Below, in pieces: positions 1-6,072 of a stretch of DNA of 6,072 bases (its first letter is position 1; every line of letters starts with the position of its first letter). Made by a program: the position numbers and the translations under genes. The stretch is from the IMG/VR virus record IMGVR_UViG_3300022758_000043, positions 1 to 6,072 of that record; one strand, given 5' to 3'. The notes beneath the pieces are model-generated. The model saw only the letters and a program-made list of their open reading frames with translations. It did no database searches and was not told the DNA's origin. Source of the stretch: a virus.

Positions 1-92
1 GCTATTTTGTAAGTGTTCCTACCTGGGATTTCTCTTACGATGATATTTCCCGTATTGTTAACGTAAATTGCTGTAAATTTTGTTGCTGCCAT
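1..92 (-). CDS. Redundant copy of the 5' end of the 143-aa ORF (same sequence as 5946..6037), truncated by the window edge
   Basis: The ATG is the reverse complement of CAT at 90..92, which corresponds to 6035..6037. It lies inside the 127-nt overlap and is not a separate gene. Confidence 0.9.
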   Translation of the reverse strand, partial: MAATKFTAIYVNNTGNIIVREIPGRNTYKI

Positions 93-113
93 AGTTTAAA
101 AATGTTTTTTAGT

Positions 114-127
114 TGTTATTAATATCA
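114..127 (-). promoter_or_regulatory. Candidate viral-strand replication origin core (phiX174-like Rep nick site); duplicate copy at 6059..6072
   Basis: The minus strand reads AAAAA-TGATATTAATAACA-ACTAAAAAAC. As I recall it, the phiX174 30-nt origin is CAACTTG/ATATTAATAACACTATAGACCAC, which gives 14 contiguous identical bases spanning the G/A cleavage position. The motif is on the coding-sense strand, as in phiX174, in an intergenic region 22 nt upstream of the 143-aa ORF. Confidence 0.5.
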
Positions 128-250
128 TTTTTTTTAATCTGTTGTTTTCGCATCTGAAATAATCTTCTGTTATTCCGTTGCATCTCCTTAGTTTCATTGT
201 CCAGGTACGTCCTTTGTCTACTTTTGTTTTTACTAGTATCATAGTCTTTC

Positions 251-304
251 TTTTTTTTGATTACGTTGCAAATATCCTTGTTTTTTTTGATTTTGCAAAA
301 TATT
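251..304. repeat. Imperfect tandem duplication of a T8-GATT-TTGCAAA-(A)TAT unit in the AT-rich spacer
   Basis: TTTTTTTTGATT is exact at 251..262 and 281..292, 30 nt apart. Each copy is followed by the palindromic hexamer-containing TTGCAAA (266..272 and 293..299). Further T8 runs lie at 128..135 and 343..350. Confidence 0.8.
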
Positions 305-351
305 CTATTGTTTGTTTGAAGCTTTTGTTATTTATTAACTTATTTTTTTTC

Positions 352-630
352 TGTAAGCATGCGCGGCGTTTGAGCGCCGATAGAGCAATAGAGAGCGCGT
401 AGCTCTCCTTAGCGTCTAGCACCTTAGTACCGGCGGAGCCGCACACCACGACCTTCGGTCGGGTGCACGTCACTCCTTATCCTGGTCTTAAGGCAGCTGT
501 CTCTTGGATAAAGGCGTACCTCACCCTCCCGTTATACACCGGAGCCCCCCGGCGTTTGAGGTGGTAAATATAGATCCGTGTGATGTTAACACGGAACCTC
601 GTTGGACGTGCCCGTGCGCAGCCCCTTACA
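352..630. other. GC-rich, highly self-complementary noncoding island; candidate structured ncRNA or ssDNA complementary-strand origin/priming signal, unclassified
   Basis: I counted 156 G+C in 361..625 (265 nt, ~59%), against 20/60 in 5401..5460 and 14/60 in 241..300. The only long ORF touching it is the composition-chimeric 261..473 one. An interrupted inverted repeat closes the island: 352..357 TGTAAG with 625..630 CTTACA, and 360..364 TGCGC with 616..620 GCGCA. Local hairpins are 364-368/375-379, 391-396/402-407, 444-453/457-465 (A448 bulged), 475-479/489-493 and 575-581/589-595. Confidence 0.6.
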
Positions 631-1252
631 TATGGATTTGATTGAAATATAGATTGGCGAATGAGTCGATGTCGTTATTGAATTGGTTTTCACTTCTTTT
701 TTCTTTTTTCTTTAGTTTCTCGGCGACTTTAGTCGCTTTAGTTTCCACCCACTGGTGTTGTTTTTTGATTCTGTTTAGATATTTCCTTTCATCCCAATCT
801 TTTGGATTATCGTGATATAGTCTTTCGCACCGTTCTCGTTCTTGTACAAGTACGGTCAGGTAGTGTTGTTGGTCGTTTTTCATGTCTAGTTTGTTTCCTA
901 GTACATATACTATTCCTTTTTCGATTTTGTCCAGGAATAGTTTTTCACGTTCTTCTTCTGTAAATATTTTGTTTCTGTAATAGATAGGTAGATTGAGTTT
1001 TCCTCCGTTTCTCATTCGGTATGACTCATTTGTTTTGCCTGGTATGTATACATGTCTTTTGGCGTCCTCTCGTTTGAGGTATCCTGAACCTATTCCTGCC
1101 GAACATAGCACTTTTCCTCTGAATTTCGGGTGTTTTTCGTCTACCTTTAACATGTATTTTGTGATGTAGTTGATAGTTTTTTCATTTACAAAGTATCCGG
1201 TGAATGTGATTCCGTATTTCCAGTTGTTCGTTACTTTTTCTCCATTTCCCAA
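626..1252 (-). CDS. VP4: Replication initiation protein VP4 (HUH rolling-circle endonuclease), C-terminal segment; frame is open upstream to 1300
   Basis: My translation of this frame upstream of the tracked TTG start gives DTKKTERLHLHGIVWGLGNGEK. This carries the HUH motif H-L-H at 1268..1276. The Tyr motif is NYITKYMLK. The segment has no plausible start of its own and continues the upstream ORF after a +1 shift. Confidence 0.88.
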   Translation of the reverse strand: MGNGEKVTNNWKYGITFTGYFVNEKTINYITKYMLKVDEKHPKFRGKVLCSAGIGSGYLKREDAKRHVYIPGKTNESYRMRNGGKLNLPIYYRNKIFTEEEREKLFLDKIEKGIVYVLGNKLDMKNDQQHYLTVLVQERERCERLYHDNPKDWDERKYLNRIKKQHQWVETKATKVAEKLKKKEKRSENQFNNDIDSFANLYFNQIHM

Positions 1253-1664
1253 GCCCCATACTATCCCGTGTAGGTGTAATCTTTCTGTTTTTTTCGTGTC
1301 CTAGTTCTGTAATGAACCAGTGTTTTACAGATTTTCCGGTTTGTTTTCTTACTCTTTCTAGACATAGCCTTATGGCTTTTGTTGCAATATCGTTGTTATC
1401 TTTTAACTTGTATTTTTTCTTCAATTCTTTGTAGGATTTGTCATCGATTGTCAGTGTCAGAAAGTAGGCGTTTGGTGTTTGTCTGTTTTCCTCTGACATT
1501 CTTACTACCCATTGTCTTTGCTTTTGTTTTCTGCATTCATAACAGTCCCCGCATGCTGCCGTTACATAACGCAACCTTTCGTCAGGGCAAACAGGCGGTA
1601 CCCCACCATTTTTCTTTGTTGGTAGGTACCGCCTGTTTGGTATGAGTTTCGGATATAGACACAT
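1182..1664 (-). CDS. VP4: Replication initiation protein VP4, N-terminal segment (Cys-rich region and motif I), leaving the homologous frame at the A7 run 1288..1294
   Basis: MCLYPK...CPDERLRYVTAACGDCYECRKQKQRQW...FLTLT...KHWFITELGHEK is a typical microvirus VP4 N-terminus. The ATG at 1664 lies 1 nt after the VP2 stop. After the A7 run the frame reads unconserved sequence until the stop at 1182. Confidence 0.88.
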   Translation of the reverse strand: MCLYPKLIPNRRYLPTKKNGGVPPVCPDERLRYVTAACGDCYECRKQKQRQWVVRMSEENRQTPNAYFLTLTIDDKSYKELKKKYKLKDNNDIATKAIRLCLERVRKQTGKSVKHWFITELGHEKNRKITPTRDSMGLGKWRKSNEQLEIRNHIHRILCK

Positions 1665-1665
1665 A

Positions 1666-2703
1666 TTATTGAAATCCTGTTTTACCCACTTTTGTTCCCA
1701 GTGCCATTCCCGCGCCTTTCGATGCGATTTCTAGCATTCCGAGTACAATTTCTTTGACGAGCTTTTGCTCTTCAATATCTAGACCTTTTTTGCCCAAGTC
1801 GTATCTATTGAATACATCTTGTACATAGGTTTCCACTTGTTGTTTTTGGATGATTAATGCCTTTCCTTTTTTGGTCAGGTCTTCCCATCCTTGTAGAATT
1901 TCCGCAGGAATAGCCTTTGCTTGCTCTTCATTGACTTTTTTCTGGCTTCCCTTGAGTAGTATTTCAGTCATCAGATTTTGAAGTGTCAGAGAGGATTCTT
2001 TCACTTTGTTGCCAATTGTCCTTTCTTTTAACTCGTTGTCGAGTTTCATTCCGTTGATTTCTTCAATTAGTTTATCAATTCCTTTTTGTAGGCTTTTGAT
2101 ATTCCAGCGTGTTTCATCGGCTTTGTCTTTTGTCCAATCGGCCATGTTTCGTTTAAGTTCCTCTTCTGCATCCGCTACTCTGATTTGTCCTAAGATGAGC
2201 CCTTTCTTCACTTTTTCATTTGAGGTTTGTGCTATTAGGTTGTCAATTGTGGCTTTTTGTGCTTCTGTGTCTACTCCGCTTATTTTGTTGGCTTCGGCTT
2301 CGTTTTTGTTAGCCTGGCTTTCGTTTAGTTTGATTTGACTCATCGCGTTTGCCATATTTATACCGATTTCCTGTGCTCTTAGTCCCATTCCTACGGATTG
2401 GTCTTGAGGTAATCCTACTCCGCTTGCGGCTCCGGCTCCCTGGCTTGAGCCTCCTGCACCGCCCATTCCATAAATTAAGCCTGGACTTAATCCTGATGCC
2501 TTTATGTGTTTCATTTGGTTTTCGAAGTTGGTATAATTCCACATGTCTTTTGCTTGCCCTGTATTGAATTTGGCGTTTTGTCTGTTCAGTTGGGCTTGTA
2601 TATCCATTAATCGTACCTGATTTTCCCAGGATTGTTTGCTTGCGCTGTTAGCATTGATTGCTCCCATTGCAGCTCCTCCGATTCCCATTATTGTCCCTAT
2701 CAT
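1666..2703 (-). CDS. VP2: Minor capsid / DNA pilot protein VP2 (phiX174 H-like)
   Basis: 345 aa with a Gly/Ala-rich N-terminus (MGIGGAAMGA, GMGGAGGSSQGAGAASG). A long charged, coiled-coil-like region follows. It sits immediately upstream of VP4. ATG at 2703, TAA at 1666..1668. Confidence 0.85.
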   Translation of the reverse strand: MIGTIMGIGGAAMGAINANSASKQSWENQVRLMDIQAQLNRQNAKFNTGQAKDMWNYTNFENQMKHIKASGLSPGLIYGMGGAGGSSQGAGAASGVGLPQDQSVGMGLRAQEIGINMANAMSQIKLNESQANKNEAEANKISGVDTEAQKATIDNLIAQTSNEKVKKGLILGQIRVADAEEELKRNMADWTKDKADETRWNIKSLQKGIDKLIEEINGMKLDNELKERTIGNKVKESSLTLQNLMTEILLKGSQKKVNEEQAKAIPAEILQGWEDLTKKGKALIIQKQQVETYVQDVFNRYDLGKKGLDIEEQKLVKEIVLGMLEIASKGAGMALGTKVGKTGFQ

Positions 2704-2763
2704 AATTATTTACATTTTTCGCATCTTTTTCTAAAAGAGCTATTCATATTACTCGATAATAAA

Positions 2764-2837
2764 TTGTAGGCGCGTACTTTCGTGTATTGTCCGGTAATTA
2801 AACCGGACATATACTCCGAAGTGCTTGTTGCCTACAA
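2764..2837. other. Imperfect 74-nt rod-like stem-loop in the intergenic spacer upstream of VP2
   Basis: An 8-bp closing stem pairs TTGTAGGC 2764..2771 with GCCTACAA 2830..2837. An inner stem pairs TTCG 2779..2782 with CGAA 2817..2820. The apical hairpin pairs TGTCCGG 2788..2794 with CCGGACA 2803..2809 around an 8-nt loop. Confidence 0.6.
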
Positions 2838-2840
2838 GGC

Positions 2841-2860
2841 TTTGAAGATACCTCTTCAAA
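2841..2860 (-). terminator. Perfect 8-bp hairpin 4 nt downstream of the 105-aa ORF stop; possible terminator or processing signal, but with no U-tract
   Basis: TTTGAAGA-TACC-TCTTCAAA at 2841..2860. On the coding strand it is followed by GCCTTG rather than a T run, so it is not a canonical intrinsic terminator. Confidence 0.3.
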
Positions 2861-2864
2861 CAGT

Positions 2865-3182
2865 TTAGTTTTCACTAGGTGAACCTCCTTGTGTTTTATC
2901 AGGTACATTCCCGAAATCTTCCGGTTTTGGTGTCGTTTCTTTCTTGGCTGCGCTTTTTGAGATTTTATCGTAAGCGTCCATTGCTATATCGAATCTGTCT
3001 GTCCTGATATTGTATGCAGGTAGTACACCGTCTTCTTTTGCTGTATAGATAATTGGTGCCGTATCTGTGATTGGCTCATTGTTTTGTAGAACTCTTGCGC
3101 ATTTTGTTTCAATACTTTCACCTTCGTAGATTTCGATTGATTTTAGTCTATTGTTGTTTTTTGATGGTTTTGAGTATTTCAT
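2865..3182 (-). CDS. Hypothetical 105-aa protein downstream of VP1; scaffold-like position, function not recognised
   Basis: The tracked ORF 2865..3221 begins with GTG inside the VP1 3' end. The first ATG (MKYSKPSKNN...) is at 3182, 13 nt after the VP1 stop. The sequence is non-repetitive, with a plausible globular core (IYEGESIETK...PIIYTAKEDGVLPAYNIRTDRFDIAMDAYD) and a disordered tail. Confidence 0.7.
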   Translation of the reverse strand: MKYSKPSKNNNRLKSIEIYEGESIETKCARVLQNNEPITDTAPIIYTAKEDGVLPAYNIRTDRFDIAMDAYDKISKSAAKKETTPKPEDFGNVPDKTQGGSPSEN

Positions 3183-3195
3183 AATGTAATAAATT

Positions 3196-5124
3196 TTATA
3201 AGTTAGGAATTTGTTTTGCACTGATTAGACGTCTCACTTTGATGTCAAATTTTGTCTGTACCCAGAAATTCATGGCGTCCAGATTTGTATCTGCGAATAT
3301 GTAGTTGAATTTTACCGGGTCTATATAGGTTGTTAAATCCTCGATTTGTTTGTTTGAACTTATTGAGTAATTTCTATTTAACACCATAAACGCCTCGCTC
3401 ATTCCTGCTGCGAAGTTTCCGAATGTTCTGTTGACGTTCGTCATGTAGTTGATCCATGCGACTGTCTTTCCTGCCGCCGTCTTTTTTAAGTCCGGGTCTG
3501 CGTTATAGTAGTCAGTCCACCAGGCTCTTTCTCCGTTTAGTGAGTCCTGGTACCCGATTCCGTCTAGTGCCGGTTTGTGCCAGTCGTCCATAGTTTCCAG
3601 GTAAGTATCCCATGTGTTCCCTTGTGAATAGTCTATACGTGGAGTAATTGAGCATATGCATATAATATAACATGGTTCTGTTACTTTGATACGGATATGT
3701 CCTCCTTTTTGACGTCCTGTTGTCACACCTCGTCCGGCTAGTGTTCCTAGAGGTTCGTCTTGTGATGCGCTGTTGCTTACTACTTCCTGGAATACGATTT
3801 CCTGGCTTACACCTCCTTCGAACATTGGTGTTTCGCATCTTTCCATGTAGTTGCCGCCTGTATATACTGTTTCCAACCAATCTCTGTAAGTACCTGCACT
3901 TACTGCGATTCTGTTAAGGAAGTTGTATACTTTTTGTGACAAGTTTAAAGCGTCCATTGATAGTATACCGTTTGATACGTCTACCGCGCTGGCTTCGTTG
4001 ATTCCGTTTACTCCGTCTATCCATTCGGTATTAATCCAGTTTTGGTATAAGTCACTGTTGTATGTTTTTAGGCATAGTCCGTATTGCGTATTTGCTGAGT
4101 TTAGTCTATTGTTTGAATCTCTTTTTGTGAATTCTGTGAATGGTTCTACGCTGTTTGCGCCTGATAGGTCAAATGTTGTATCACCTGGTGTTAGTAGTAT
4201 TTTGTCTCTAATTTCATCTAGATTTTCTAGTGGTATTGTTTTTAATGATGTTCTTTTTGTTGAGTATACTGCCCTTATGTACCAGGTACTTCCGGCAGGT
4301 ATTAGATTTGTTGTTAGATTCCAATGGTTTGATACTTTTTCTATATCTCCTAGCTCTGACGCTTTCATTGTCACTGTTCGTGCGTTTAGTCCTTGCGCTA
4401 CGGAGAATTCTAGTTCATCTTCTGTTAGTGTTGTTGGTTTTATGGTTATTATTCCGCCCGAAGTAACTGCTCCTTGACTGTTTATTATGCTGTCAGGGTC
4501 TGTTATGTTTATGCCGTTTATTGTTACTGTTAGCGTTGGTGATGTTCCGATTATATAGAAGTTTTCTTCTTGTGTATTTGCGTAGAAATTTTTAAATATA
4601 TCGTAGTATGATAAGAGAGCTAGTCCGTTTTTATATACGTCTTTCTCTCCTGCTACGTTTGCGTTTGCGAACCCTCTTATACCTAAGTATGCTAGTAGGC
4701 AACTTGGGTTTACCTGTTTCCATTGGTCCTCTTCATTTGTTACGTTGTCGTATGCTTGATTTAATCTTGCTCTTAATTGAGGTAGTTTTACCTGTGCCAT
4801 ATTCAGCCCTATTTTTGTACGGTTGTTGTGTAACCAGCTGTTGTATAGGCGTACTGGTGCTGTATAGACGTGATGTTCTAGTTTGAATGAACCGAATAAC
4901 GGCCCTGTTGTTGGATGCGTGAGTACATTTGCGTCTATATCAATGTCGAACGTATCTCCTTTTTGTCCTACTATACAAAGGTTTGGAACTAGTGTTCCTG
5001 GACTTTGTGTGTTTCTTACAATTGTTGATAAGTCGTGAGTTGACATGTTATAGTTATGTAGACTCACTGCCATTTTGTTATTGTCTCCGATAGTATTTTT
5101 ACCGATATTTTTAGTTAGTCCCAT
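3196..5124 (-). CDS. VP1: Major capsid protein VP1 (phiX174 F-like)
   Basis: 642 aa. The N-terminal HDLS...GTLVP...GDTFDIDI...THPTTGPLFGS...APVRLYNSW pattern and the C-terminal FWVQTKFDIKVRR are typical of microvirus major capsid proteins. It is the largest ORF in the genome. The start could alternatively be the internal Met 17 codons downstream. Confidence 0.95.
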   Translation of the reverse strand: MGLTKNIGKNTIGDNNKMAVSLHNYNMSTHDLSTIVRNTQSPGTLVPNLCIVGQKGDTFDIDIDANVLTHPTTGPLFGSFKLEHHVYTAPVRLYNSWLHNNRTKIGLNMAQVKLPQLRARLNQAYDNVTNEEDQWKQVNPSCLLAYLGIRGFANANVAGEKDVYKNGLALLSYYDIFKNFYANTQEENFYIIGTSPTLTVTINGINITDPDSIINSQGAVTSGGIITIKPTTLTEDELEFSVAQGLNARTVTMKASELGDIEKVSNHWNLTTNLIPAGSTWYIRAVYSTKRTSLKTIPLENLDEIRDKILLTPGDTTFDLSGANSVEPFTEFTKRDSNNRLNSANTQYGLCLKTYNSDLYQNWINTEWIDGVNGINEASAVDVSNGILSMDALNLSQKVYNFLNRIAVSAGTYRDWLETVYTGGNYMERCETPMFEGGVSQEIVFQEVVSNSASQDEPLGTLAGRGVTTGRQKGGHIRIKVTEPCYIICICSITPRIDYSQGNTWDTYLETMDDWHKPALDGIGYQDSLNGERAWWTDYYNADPDLKKTAAGKTVAWINYMTNVNRTFGNFAAGMSEAFMVLNRNYSISSNKQIEDLTTYIDPVKFNYIFADTNLDAMNFWVQTKFDIKVRRLISAKQIPNL

Positions 5125-5127
5125 AAT

Positions 5128-5394
5128 TTAGCCCTTCTTTTCGTTAGTGTTTTTTACTTTTTTTTCGATTCGTTTGAGTTTTTTCTCGTATTCGTCTGCT
5201 TCTTTACATGCATATATCATTGCTGCGACTAGATTCCAGTCTACAGAGTTGATTCTTTCTTCTGCTGCTTCACGCGTTGGAAACTTTTCTGTTGTTGCTA
5301 AATGTTTTCCAATTACGATCATGTACTCCTTTCCTTCTTGTGTTGTTGGTAATATTTTGAATACATCTTTTAAGTCGTTAAATTCTCTTTTCAT
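5128..5394 (-). CDS. Hypothetical 88-aa protein with a Lys/Glu-rich C-terminus
   Basis: ATG start. The stop lies 3 nt before the VP1 start and the start lies 2 nt after the 68-aa ORF's stop codon, so packing is tight on the coding strand. The composition looks like real protein. No family recognised. Confidence 0.65.
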   Translation of the reverse strand: MKREFNDLKDVFKILPTTQEGKEYMIVIGKHLATTEKFPTREAAEERINSVDWNLVAAMIYACKEADEYEKKLKRIEKKVKNTNEKKG

Positions 5395-5396
5395 TT

Positions 5397-5603
5397 TTAA
5401 TAGTTTTTAGGATTAATATTAATGTGTGTACTGTCAACGCTTGACGTTGTTGTTTGTTCGGTCTTTTGCGTTGAGTTTTGATTGTTTTTGCTTACGCTTA
5501 GGCTCATTGTACACGACTGTACACATAAGGTCGTGATTATAGCAATGATGGCTGTACTGATAGCTCGAATAATTTCTACCCATTGGTTTCCGGTTATTTT
5601 CAT
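5397..5603 (-). CDS. Small (68 aa) N-terminally membrane-anchored protein with a Ser/Thr/Asn/Gln-rich tail; candidate lysis or membrane-acting protein
   Basis: MKITGNQ is followed by the hydrophobic stretch WVEIIRAISTAIIAIITTLCV and then QSCTMSLSVSKNNQNSTQKTEQTTTSS. VQSC is at best a weak lipobox. The ORF is tightly packed between its neighbours. Confidence 0.6.
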   Translation of the reverse strand: MKITGNQWVEIIRAISTAIIAIITTLCVQSCTMSLSVSKNNQNSTQKTEQTTTSSVDSTHININPKNY

Positions 5604-5605
5604 GT

Positions 5606-6037
5606 TTAAAATAATTTAAGTTGTTTTTGATTCCAGTCTTTTAAATCTTCTTCGTCTTTATCATAAGTTTTTTCACATATTAATCTCCTTTCTTGTTTTG
5701 TGAAGATGTATTTTTTTGTAATAACATCTTCTTCTATTTCGTAACATATTTTTGTAGTATTTTTTGGTATGAAATACCATATGTGTTCCTTTAGTTGTTT
5801 GAATGTATCAAATAAAAAACTATCTGATACATATTTTTTAATCTTTTTCGGTTTTTTCATTTTTTTAGGATACAATTTCCATGTTTCTACTACACATATC
5901 AGTTTGGTTTCTTCCGGGTCATTTAGCATAATAGCGAATTTTTCCGCTATTTTGTAAGTGTTCCTACCTGGGATTTCTCTTACGATGATATTTCCCGTAT
6001 TGTTAACGTAAATTGCTGTAAATTTTGTTGCTGCCAT
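5606..6037 (-). CDS. Hypothetical 143-aa protein with a central Lys-rich patch (PKKMKKPKKIKK); first gene downstream of the origin-like motif
   Basis: ATG at 6037. The stop lies 2 nt before the 68-aa ORF start. The sequence is non-repetitive. No family recognised. Confidence 0.65.
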   Translation of the reverse strand: MAATKFTAIYVNNTGNIIVREIPGRNTYKIAEKFAIMLNDPEETKLICVVETWKLYPKKMKKPKKIKKYVSDSFLFDTFKQLKEHIWYFIPKNTTKICYEIEEDVITKKYIFTKQERRLICEKTYDKDEEDLKDWNQKQLKLF

Positions 6038-6072
6038 AGTTTAAAAATGTTTTTTAGTTGTTATTAATATCA
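5946..6072. repeat. Second copy of the terminal overlap (equals 1..127)
   Basis: Exact identity to 1..127. It contains the start of the 143-aa ORF and the origin-like motif. Confidence 0.97.

Follow-up and report, generated by a model that had tools for sequence, protein, structure and literature searches.

A portable GC-rich cassette in gut microviruses as a candidate replication origin on the strand opposite the genes

What is the function of a GC-rich, non-coding island lying at the end of the replication gene of a gut microvirus? The question is posed by positions 352–630 of a 6,072-nt stretch of viral DNA (IMG/VR record IMGVR_UViG_3300022758_000043, positions 1–6,072; hereafter the window), which represents a circular microvirus genome 5,945 nt long plus a short overlap, as indicated by a 127-nt terminal redundancy (1–127 identical to 5946–6072). 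The nearest GenBank record, PV067927 from the human gut, is 81% identical over 98% of the genome. All recognisable genes of the window lie on the minus strand, comprising the capsid protein VP1 (3196–5124), the pilot protein VP2 (1666–2703) and the replication protein Rep (VP4; 626–1664), the last split into two ORFs by a frameshift, with the island beginning at the Rep stop codon. The GC content of the island is 57.3% (160/279), against 20.6% in the preceding flank (250–351), 32% in the following flank (631–730) and 38.3% for the genome overall; the sharp rise in GC content described in the original prediction therefore stands, although its count of 156/265 (59%) was slightly high, the value for 366–630 being 152/265 (57.4%). 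The explanation favoured here, with somewhat better than even confidence, is that the island is a cis-acting replication-origin cassette, acting on the window plus strand when this is single-stranded and carrying the nick site of Rep, in a lineage that would accordingly be negative-sense.

The claim that it holds no credible ORF is borne out, as all frames are interrupted, the longest open stretches spanning 27–54 codons, and no protein family match was returned for any island ORF or for a 70-aa minus-strand ORF at 261–473. The earlier failure to fit a tRNA or tmRNA is likewise upheld by ARAGORN, which found neither in the island, and a permissive search of Rfam 15 gave no match for the window island (E ≤ 10) or, at E ≤ 1, for six of its relatives. 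The inverted repeats originally described are exact (TGTAAG at 352–357 with CTTACA at 625–630; TGCGC at 360–364 with GCGCA at 616–620), the outer arm does cover the Rep stop codon (TAA at 626–628, minus strand), and GAGGT (558–562) and both copies of ACCTC (518–522 and 596–600) are present. The closing stem formed by these repeats, with its 3′ arm at 616–630 pairing with 352–364 on the plus strand, is nevertheless lineage-specific, being confined to the immediate sublineage of the window and absent from PV067927, and its arm at 360–364 competes with a conserved hairpin, H1 (361–364/374–377). A dif/XerCD-like site considered at 612–640 was a poor match by eye.

The island belongs to a widespread family. 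The search for relatives proposed originally yielded, by blastn, partial matches to the island in 27 GenBank records of microviruses sampled from humans, rats, lemurs, tortoises and civets, and the exact pattern of its invariant core retrieved 22 IMG/VR microvirus contigs and 109 metagenome stretches, nearly all of ∼6 kb, with 13 unrelated chance matches that were readily distinguished. A covariance model of the central 89 positions scored canonical members at 75–105 bits and a divergent member (L008) at 36 bits, against at most 14 bits for chance loci, and located one copy of the cassette per genome, in more than 100 microvirus genomes. The 30-nt core pattern had no match in 185,579 bacterial and archaeal species genomes (one genome per species), a collection in which the Rep protein also found no relatives. 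The canonical motif is absent from mar45 and from Dulem virus 201, two relatives that are likewise A-rich on the coding strand. Bajarodmic virus 670 (L162, PQ006887), also A-rich in its coding strand, carries a different, divergent GC-rich island after Rep (4600–4918, reverse strand), in which CTAGCACC is kept and is followed by GGTAGGTGC, giving a local GCACC/GGTGC hairpin; such islands may thus form a broader superfamily, part of which escapes the covariance model. Longer contigs bearing the cassette were considered as prophages and proved uninformative: a 10.5-kb contig (L048) is an inverted dimer with its turn-around inside the cassette, an 11-kb contig (L097) consists of two related genomes joined, with a total of two cassettes, concatemers are represented by L081 and L113, and L083 and L114, which look chimeric, are bordered by GC-rich bacterial-like DNA, in L114 just 5′ of the cassette. 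These contigs are probably amplification or assembly artefacts, and their junctions at the cassette could reflect cassette biology.

Three genome architectures carry the cassette. In the window type, with a Rep of ∼340 aa, it directly follows Rep and runs antisense to all the genes; where Rep is ∼550 aa long, it follows VP2 in the sense orientation; and in ON840045 it lies after a 750-aa VP1, again in sense. The whole cassette (352–630 on the window plus strand; ∼275 nt from TAAGC to GCGCAGCCC), recognisable by its GC contrast, has sharp boundaries common to the window-type and Rep ∼550-aa genomes, and is ∼90% identical between the window and two sense-type genomes (L019 and L033) whose remaining sequence and flanks are unrelated to those of the window; the 3′ hairpin of the window is nearer to L019 and L033 than to its own 81%-identical relative. 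The Reps of the window-type and sense-type genomes do not match each other by BLASTP, and both match phrog_942 (replication initiation protein). The occurrence of a near-identical cassette beside undetectably similar Reps indicates that the module is portable and that its recognition is independent of close Rep kinship, a distribution for which recognition by the host would account no less well than recognition by Rep.

The family-wide core extends on the plus strand from H1 to a CCCTCCCGTTATAC box (357–540), as delineated by aligning 9 (A1) and 73 (A2) non-redundant homologues. A predicted hairpin H1 (361–377; GCGC, loop GGCGTTTGA, GCGC) has the stem CCGT/ACGG or GCGT/ACGC in relatives, and MG945743-type elements differ at this place. 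Hairpin H2 (391–407; GAGAGC, loop GCGTA, GCTCTC), with two-sided changes in five of its six pairs across 83 distinct sequences, is followed by an invariant unpaired block, CTTAGCGTCTAGCACCTTAGTAC (408–430; family consensus CTTAGCG(T/A)CTAGCACCTTGATATC), and TAGCACCTT and TA.CG are without variation in any homologue. Hairpin H3 (431–441; CGGC, loop GGA, GCCG) is paired in 100% of cells, with a third pair that alternates between CG, GC and AU, and hairpin H4 (444–465; CACC-A-CGACC, loop TTC, GGTCG-GGTG, with a conserved bulged A) is paired in 98.9% of cells, with two-sided changes in seven of nine pairs and G·T in 27 cells against A·C in none. The proximal H4 is supported by C→T/G→A covariation over a competing pairing of GCACC, 5′ of the presumed nick, with GGTGC, and this competing pairing was discarded. 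A tentative hairpin H5 (475–493; CCTTA…TAAGG) is predicted in most subtypes, in a register that shifts among them, and comparison of subtypes defines a conserved pyrimidine-rich box, CACCCTCCCGTTATACACC (522–540), which ends in TATAC in the window and in all subtypes reads CC(C/T)TCCC followed by TATA(C/A) or a TAAAAT-like end. Beyond this box, the hairpins that run to 630 are subtype-specific, including TCCGTGT…ACACGGA (575–595), conserved only within the window subtype.

Structure in the island is supported by comparison rather than by stability. Folding of the single sequence exceeds that of shuffled copies only marginally, both as DNA (z = −1.9 for the plus strand, −1.7 for the minus) and as RNA (z = −1.8 and −3.7, respectively), with neither strand consistently favoured, so that thermodynamics alone shows no structure; it is the alignment of homologous sequences across genomes that establishes the predicted fold. 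Across the 83 distinct sequences, pairing within H2–H4 is seen in 96.2% of cells, and compensatory two-sided changes affect 13 of 19 pairs, values reached by none of 500 shuffles, with slid partners pairing in only 36–40%; the alignment is model-fitted and biased toward structure, and the same compensatory changes are seen in plain MAFFT alignments. RNAalifold applied to the full core recovered just two helices, and an all-against-all scan for covarying columns was dominated by phylogenetic signal.

Which strand folds was only weakly hinted at originally, from a few wobble positions in the window, and the hint in favour of the plus strand is reinforced by the family as a whole. On the motif strand (the window plus strand), wobble cells in the covarying helices number 59 for G·T against one for A·C (40:0 in the antisense, window-type genomes and 19:1 in the sense genomes), an excess that a C→T bias on the motif strand alone would also raise. 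Since G·T is tolerated only if the plus strand is the one that folds, these counts identify it as the folded strand, G·T being accepted as a pair, as shown by the scarcity of other mismatches in H3 and H4. The constraint on folding of the motif strand applies to sense and antisense genomes alike. Folding each hairpin on each strand was tried as a strand test and gave no separation, which was obtained only from wobble counts in covarying columns. The original prediction was silent on the placement of all genes on the minus strand, from which it follows that the strand called folded is antisense to the genes.

The function of this fold is suggested by its centre. Origins of the phiX174 type consist of a key sequence, CAACTTGATA, around the cleavage site and a distal box ending in GACCAC, and positions 420–449 of the window plus strand form a 30-mer in register with the phiX174 viral-strand origin, the presumed nick falling by analogy at 426/427. 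The phiX174 origin, CAACTTG^ATATTAATAACACTATAGACCAC, was confirmed in NC_001422 (origin annotation at A4306); G4 has the identical sequence, and alpha3 departs from it at two positions. The family consensus, CACCTTGATATCG-hairpin-CACACCAC (written out, CACCTTGATATCG-NC-NNA-GN-CGCACACCAC), has the same length and register and matches at 10 of the first 11 and six of the last seven bases, H3 occupying the place of the AT-rich spacer. Points of resemblance between the cassette and the origins of phiX174, G4 and alpha3 are CA.CTTGATAT at the 5′ end, A.ACCAC at positions 24–30 in the same register, a hairpin directly after, an initiator with HUH and YxxKY motifs, and location on the T-rich strand. 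The phiX174 site differs in lying inside gene A with an AT-rich middle, whereas that of the island is non-coding, GC-rich and antisense to the genes, its spacer replaced by a covarying GC hairpin of equal length and the bases at its presumed nick varying among members (GA, AG, AA or GT).

The strength of this likeness depends on how it is measured. Over all 30 nt the unmasked match to phiX174 is 17–18/30, which is equalled by shuffled AT-rich genomes. When restricted by a mask to positions 1–11 and 24–30, chosen after the alignment had been seen, the match reaches 16/18 in 76 of 88 genomes, with shuffles (200 genomes) never exceeding 14, and in 85 of the 88 no other site on either strand scores as high as the masked site. 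The mask is in keeping with the textbook view of the origin, in which a spacer separates the key sequence from the recognition sequence. The window, which carries a TTAGTAC variant, reaches 13/18, and the divergent MG945641 has no ACCAC box. The covariance model gave no score against the phiX174 genome, and in Chp2, SpV4 and phiMH2K neither a significant site for the CTTGATAT motif nor any match to the model was found.

The cognate initiator expected of a phiX174-type origin, with an HUH motif and two tyrosines, is encoded by the relatives, the Reps of which carry FLTLT, HLHGIVWG and NYITKY when intact relatives are aligned; the HUH and YxxKY motifs are the catalytic signature of phiX174 protein A. 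The window Rep is frameshifted, its overlapping ORFs (1182–1664 and 626–1252) corresponding to a single ORF of ∼345 aa in relatives, and the frame is lost just before the HUH motif, near a homopolymer run of seven T at ∼1288–1294. This break could be an assembly or sequencing error, the mark of a defective genome or a programmed frameshift. Two further features were observed within the Rep coding region: a perfect 15-bp inverted repeat, CAAACAGGCGGTACC/GGTACCGCCTGTTTG (1588–1602/1625–1639), in the 5′ part, which is kept as a hairpin (1588–1639) in window-type relatives despite change in the DNA sequence and may be a second cis element, and a short palindrome, CGTTCTTGTACAAGTACG, at 837–854.

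The phiX174 likeness would be coincidental if the cassette were a complementary-strand origin only, with hairpins on the packaged strand recruiting host RNA polymerase or primase, as at the G4 oric, the Ff minus origin or plasmid sso elements, and Rep nicking elsewhere, an alternative considered unlikely. The conserved single-stranded DNA structure with strand-specific constraint that characterises complementary-strand origins is present in the island, a host enzyme could recognise the invariant bases, and both the wobble asymmetry and the orientation rule described below would be explained equally well; the non-significance of the unmasked similarity and the exchange of the cassette between viruses with undetectably similar Reps, as with plasmid sso cassettes, are also in its favour. 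It is opposed by the masked 16/18 match, post hoc in its mask, as the unique genome-wide best in 85 of 88 genomes, by the lack of any other conserved non-coding nick-site candidate seen in these genomes, and by the lack of an identified known priming motif. The ssoA and ssoU elements of rolling-circle plasmids are similarly folded cassettes that are specific to one strand, depend on orientation and pass between replicons whose initiators are unrelated, and TAGCG(T/A), found at 411–416 in the window and in most homologues just 5′ of the nick-like motif, is the sequence of what we take to be the ssoA CS-6 hexamer. The island differs from them in that MG945743-type elements lack the hexamer (having TAGAGCGT instead) and in that no RSB-like element was identified in it, and the 6-nt match may be due to chance. 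The G4 oric (annotated at 3970–3998) and the phiX174 primosome assembly site likewise consist of several stem-loops within non-coding DNA of the packaged strand, as predicted here for the cassette, but neither has a sequence or covariance-model match to the island.

A combination of nicking and priming functions in one module has precedent in the Ff phages (M13/f1/fd), the packaged strand of which carries, in the intergenic region, the site nicked for plus-strand synthesis together with the site at which the minus strand is primed. Like that region, the island is a single non-coding, hairpin-rich module, which may serve both in nicking and in priming; it differs in having no sequence similarity to the Ff region and no identified packaging hairpin or promoter-mimic hairpins, and the Ff genes lie on the packaged strand. 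Stem-loop nonanucleotide origins of CRESS-DNA viruses also place an HUH nick motif beside hairpins and conserve it across very divergent Reps, and negative-sense or ambisense single-stranded DNA viruses such as anelloviruses show that genes can sit on the complement of the packaged strand, although these are eukaryotic viruses, with another motif and a nick at the loop apex.

Evidence bearing on the packaged strand comes from base composition. All 89 complete genomes, in three architectures equivalent to approximately three independent lineages, carry the motif on their T-rich strand, which is also the strand of the phiX174 origin. Four-fold degenerate sites, read on the coding strand, have A.632, T.139, C.108 and G.121 in window-type genomes, and A.139, T.636, C.118 and G.106 in sense-type genomes, such that the spectra of the two classes agree within ∼0.4% when read on the motif strand; non-coding DNA has the same compositional direction. 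In phiX174, Chp2 and SpV4 the T content of four-fold sites is.52–.65, and the packaged strand is the coding strand, as established for phiX174 and assumed for Chp2 and SpV4. Singleton substitutions read on the motif strand, drawn from clusters of close genomes, are modestly biased in both classes, with C>T over G>A, G>T over C>A and A>T over T>A. Enrichment in T is an accepted signature of cytosine deamination (C→T) in a single-stranded genome (PMC4032129). Deamination linked to transcription cannot explain the mirror image, since it would render the coding strand T-rich in every class.

With the cassette on the strand opposite all genes, the window lineage would displace and package its non-coding strand. 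We consider it about an even chance that a large clade of gut microviruses, including the window, is negative-sense, with polarity set by the orientation of a portable ∼275-nt cassette that is shared and exchanged with positive-sense microviruses. Composition is not a proven indicator of polarity, given that the coding strand of phiMH2K (L157, NC_002643), a cultured Bdellovibrio gokushovirus, is A/C-rich and this phage is assumed to be positive-sense. Its four-fold sites (A.447, C.248, T.235, G.069) are the complement of the phiX174, Chp2 and SpV4 pattern and resemble those of window-type genomes; either phiMH2K is negative-sense too, or composition is unsafe as a marker of polarity, and its composition suggests that polarity may have flipped more than once in the family. 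To our knowledge, no phage has been reported with all of its genes on the complement of the packaged strand. A limited literature search found no account of the cassette or of negative-sense microviruses; Roux et al. (2012; PMC3394797) described, as the only Microviridae case known to them, a lone unknown ORF located on the complementary strand in one gut microvirus genome.

The same orientation rule weighs against a structured non-coding RNA, one of the hypotheses raised originally and now less likely, which would be transcribed from the plus strand, antisense to the end of Rep, would act in trans in regulation or against host defences, and would travel as a gene cassette. Covarying helices with G·U-type wobbles on one strand, horizontal movement and independence from gene orientation would all be expected of such an RNA. 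It would leave both the T-rich-strand orientation and the mirrored four-fold sites unexplained, it corresponds to no Rfam family at the thresholds given above for the window and six relatives, its strand has no convincing promoter directly upstream or terminator downstream, and the block of 23 invariant bases is unpaired and resembles a site of DNA cleavage; overall, this explanation is decidedly improbable.

Folding on the opposite, coding strand, as a 3′ UTR and terminator of the Rep mRNA, is very improbable. The position of the island at the Rep stop codon, the better single-sequence RNA score of the minus strand (z = −3.7) and a hairpin with a T-rich tail that resembles a terminator for Rep (minus strand, 595→575) are consistent with such a role, but the terminator-like appearance is limited to the subtype-specific 3′ part, the wobbles lie on the other strand (G·T 40 against A·C 0 in window-type genomes), and other architectures place the cassette after VP2 or VP1 in the opposite orientation relative to the genes. 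Least credible of all is a selfish mobile insert (a MITE or an IS200/IS605-like, ssDNA-targeting element) or an assembly chimera: the terminal inverted repeats in the window, the foreign composition and the discrete boundaries of a cassette transferred between distant microvirus lineages accord with the insert proposed originally, but the cassette is present as one syntenic copy per genome, always in the same non-coding slot, its terminal repeats are not conserved and its core pattern is absent from the 185,579 species genomes, unlike the multiple copies, host presence and conserved terminal repeats of such elements, and a chimera is refuted by its recurrence in more than 100 independent assemblies.

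The favoured explanation, a replication-origin cassette, builds on the original hypothesis, in which single-stranded DNA folds into an origin or priming signal, with the additions that its centre resembles a phiX174-type nick site and that the folded strand is the non-coding one. A strand-specific function in single-stranded DNA explains together the fold, the wobble asymmetry, the single copy, the orientation to the T-rich strand, the phiX174-like centre and the portability of the module. By analogy with phiX174, Rep, through its HUH and YxxKY motifs, would nick the double-stranded replicative form within 420–449, putatively at 426/427, and this nick would start and end rolling-circle synthesis of the packaged strand, predicted to be the plus strand. 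Folding of hairpins H1–H5 in the plus strand would leave the intervening nick site accessible, and extrusion of the hairpins is predicted in the supercoiled replicative form; on the incoming genome, the hairpins would probably provide a priming site for complementary-strand synthesis by the host.

Outside the phiX174 group of microviruses, we know of no experimental mapping of the start of replication, and the cassette provides a concrete origin candidate for phages that are abundant in the human and animal gut. If the polarity proposed here is true, the textbook description of Microviridae as positive-sense needs qualifying, strand-aware virome methods and annotation need adjusting, and mirrored codon composition would constitute a simple computational read-out of the packaged strand in single-stranded DNA viruses. 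A small, portable origin would also be useful in building replicons from such phages.
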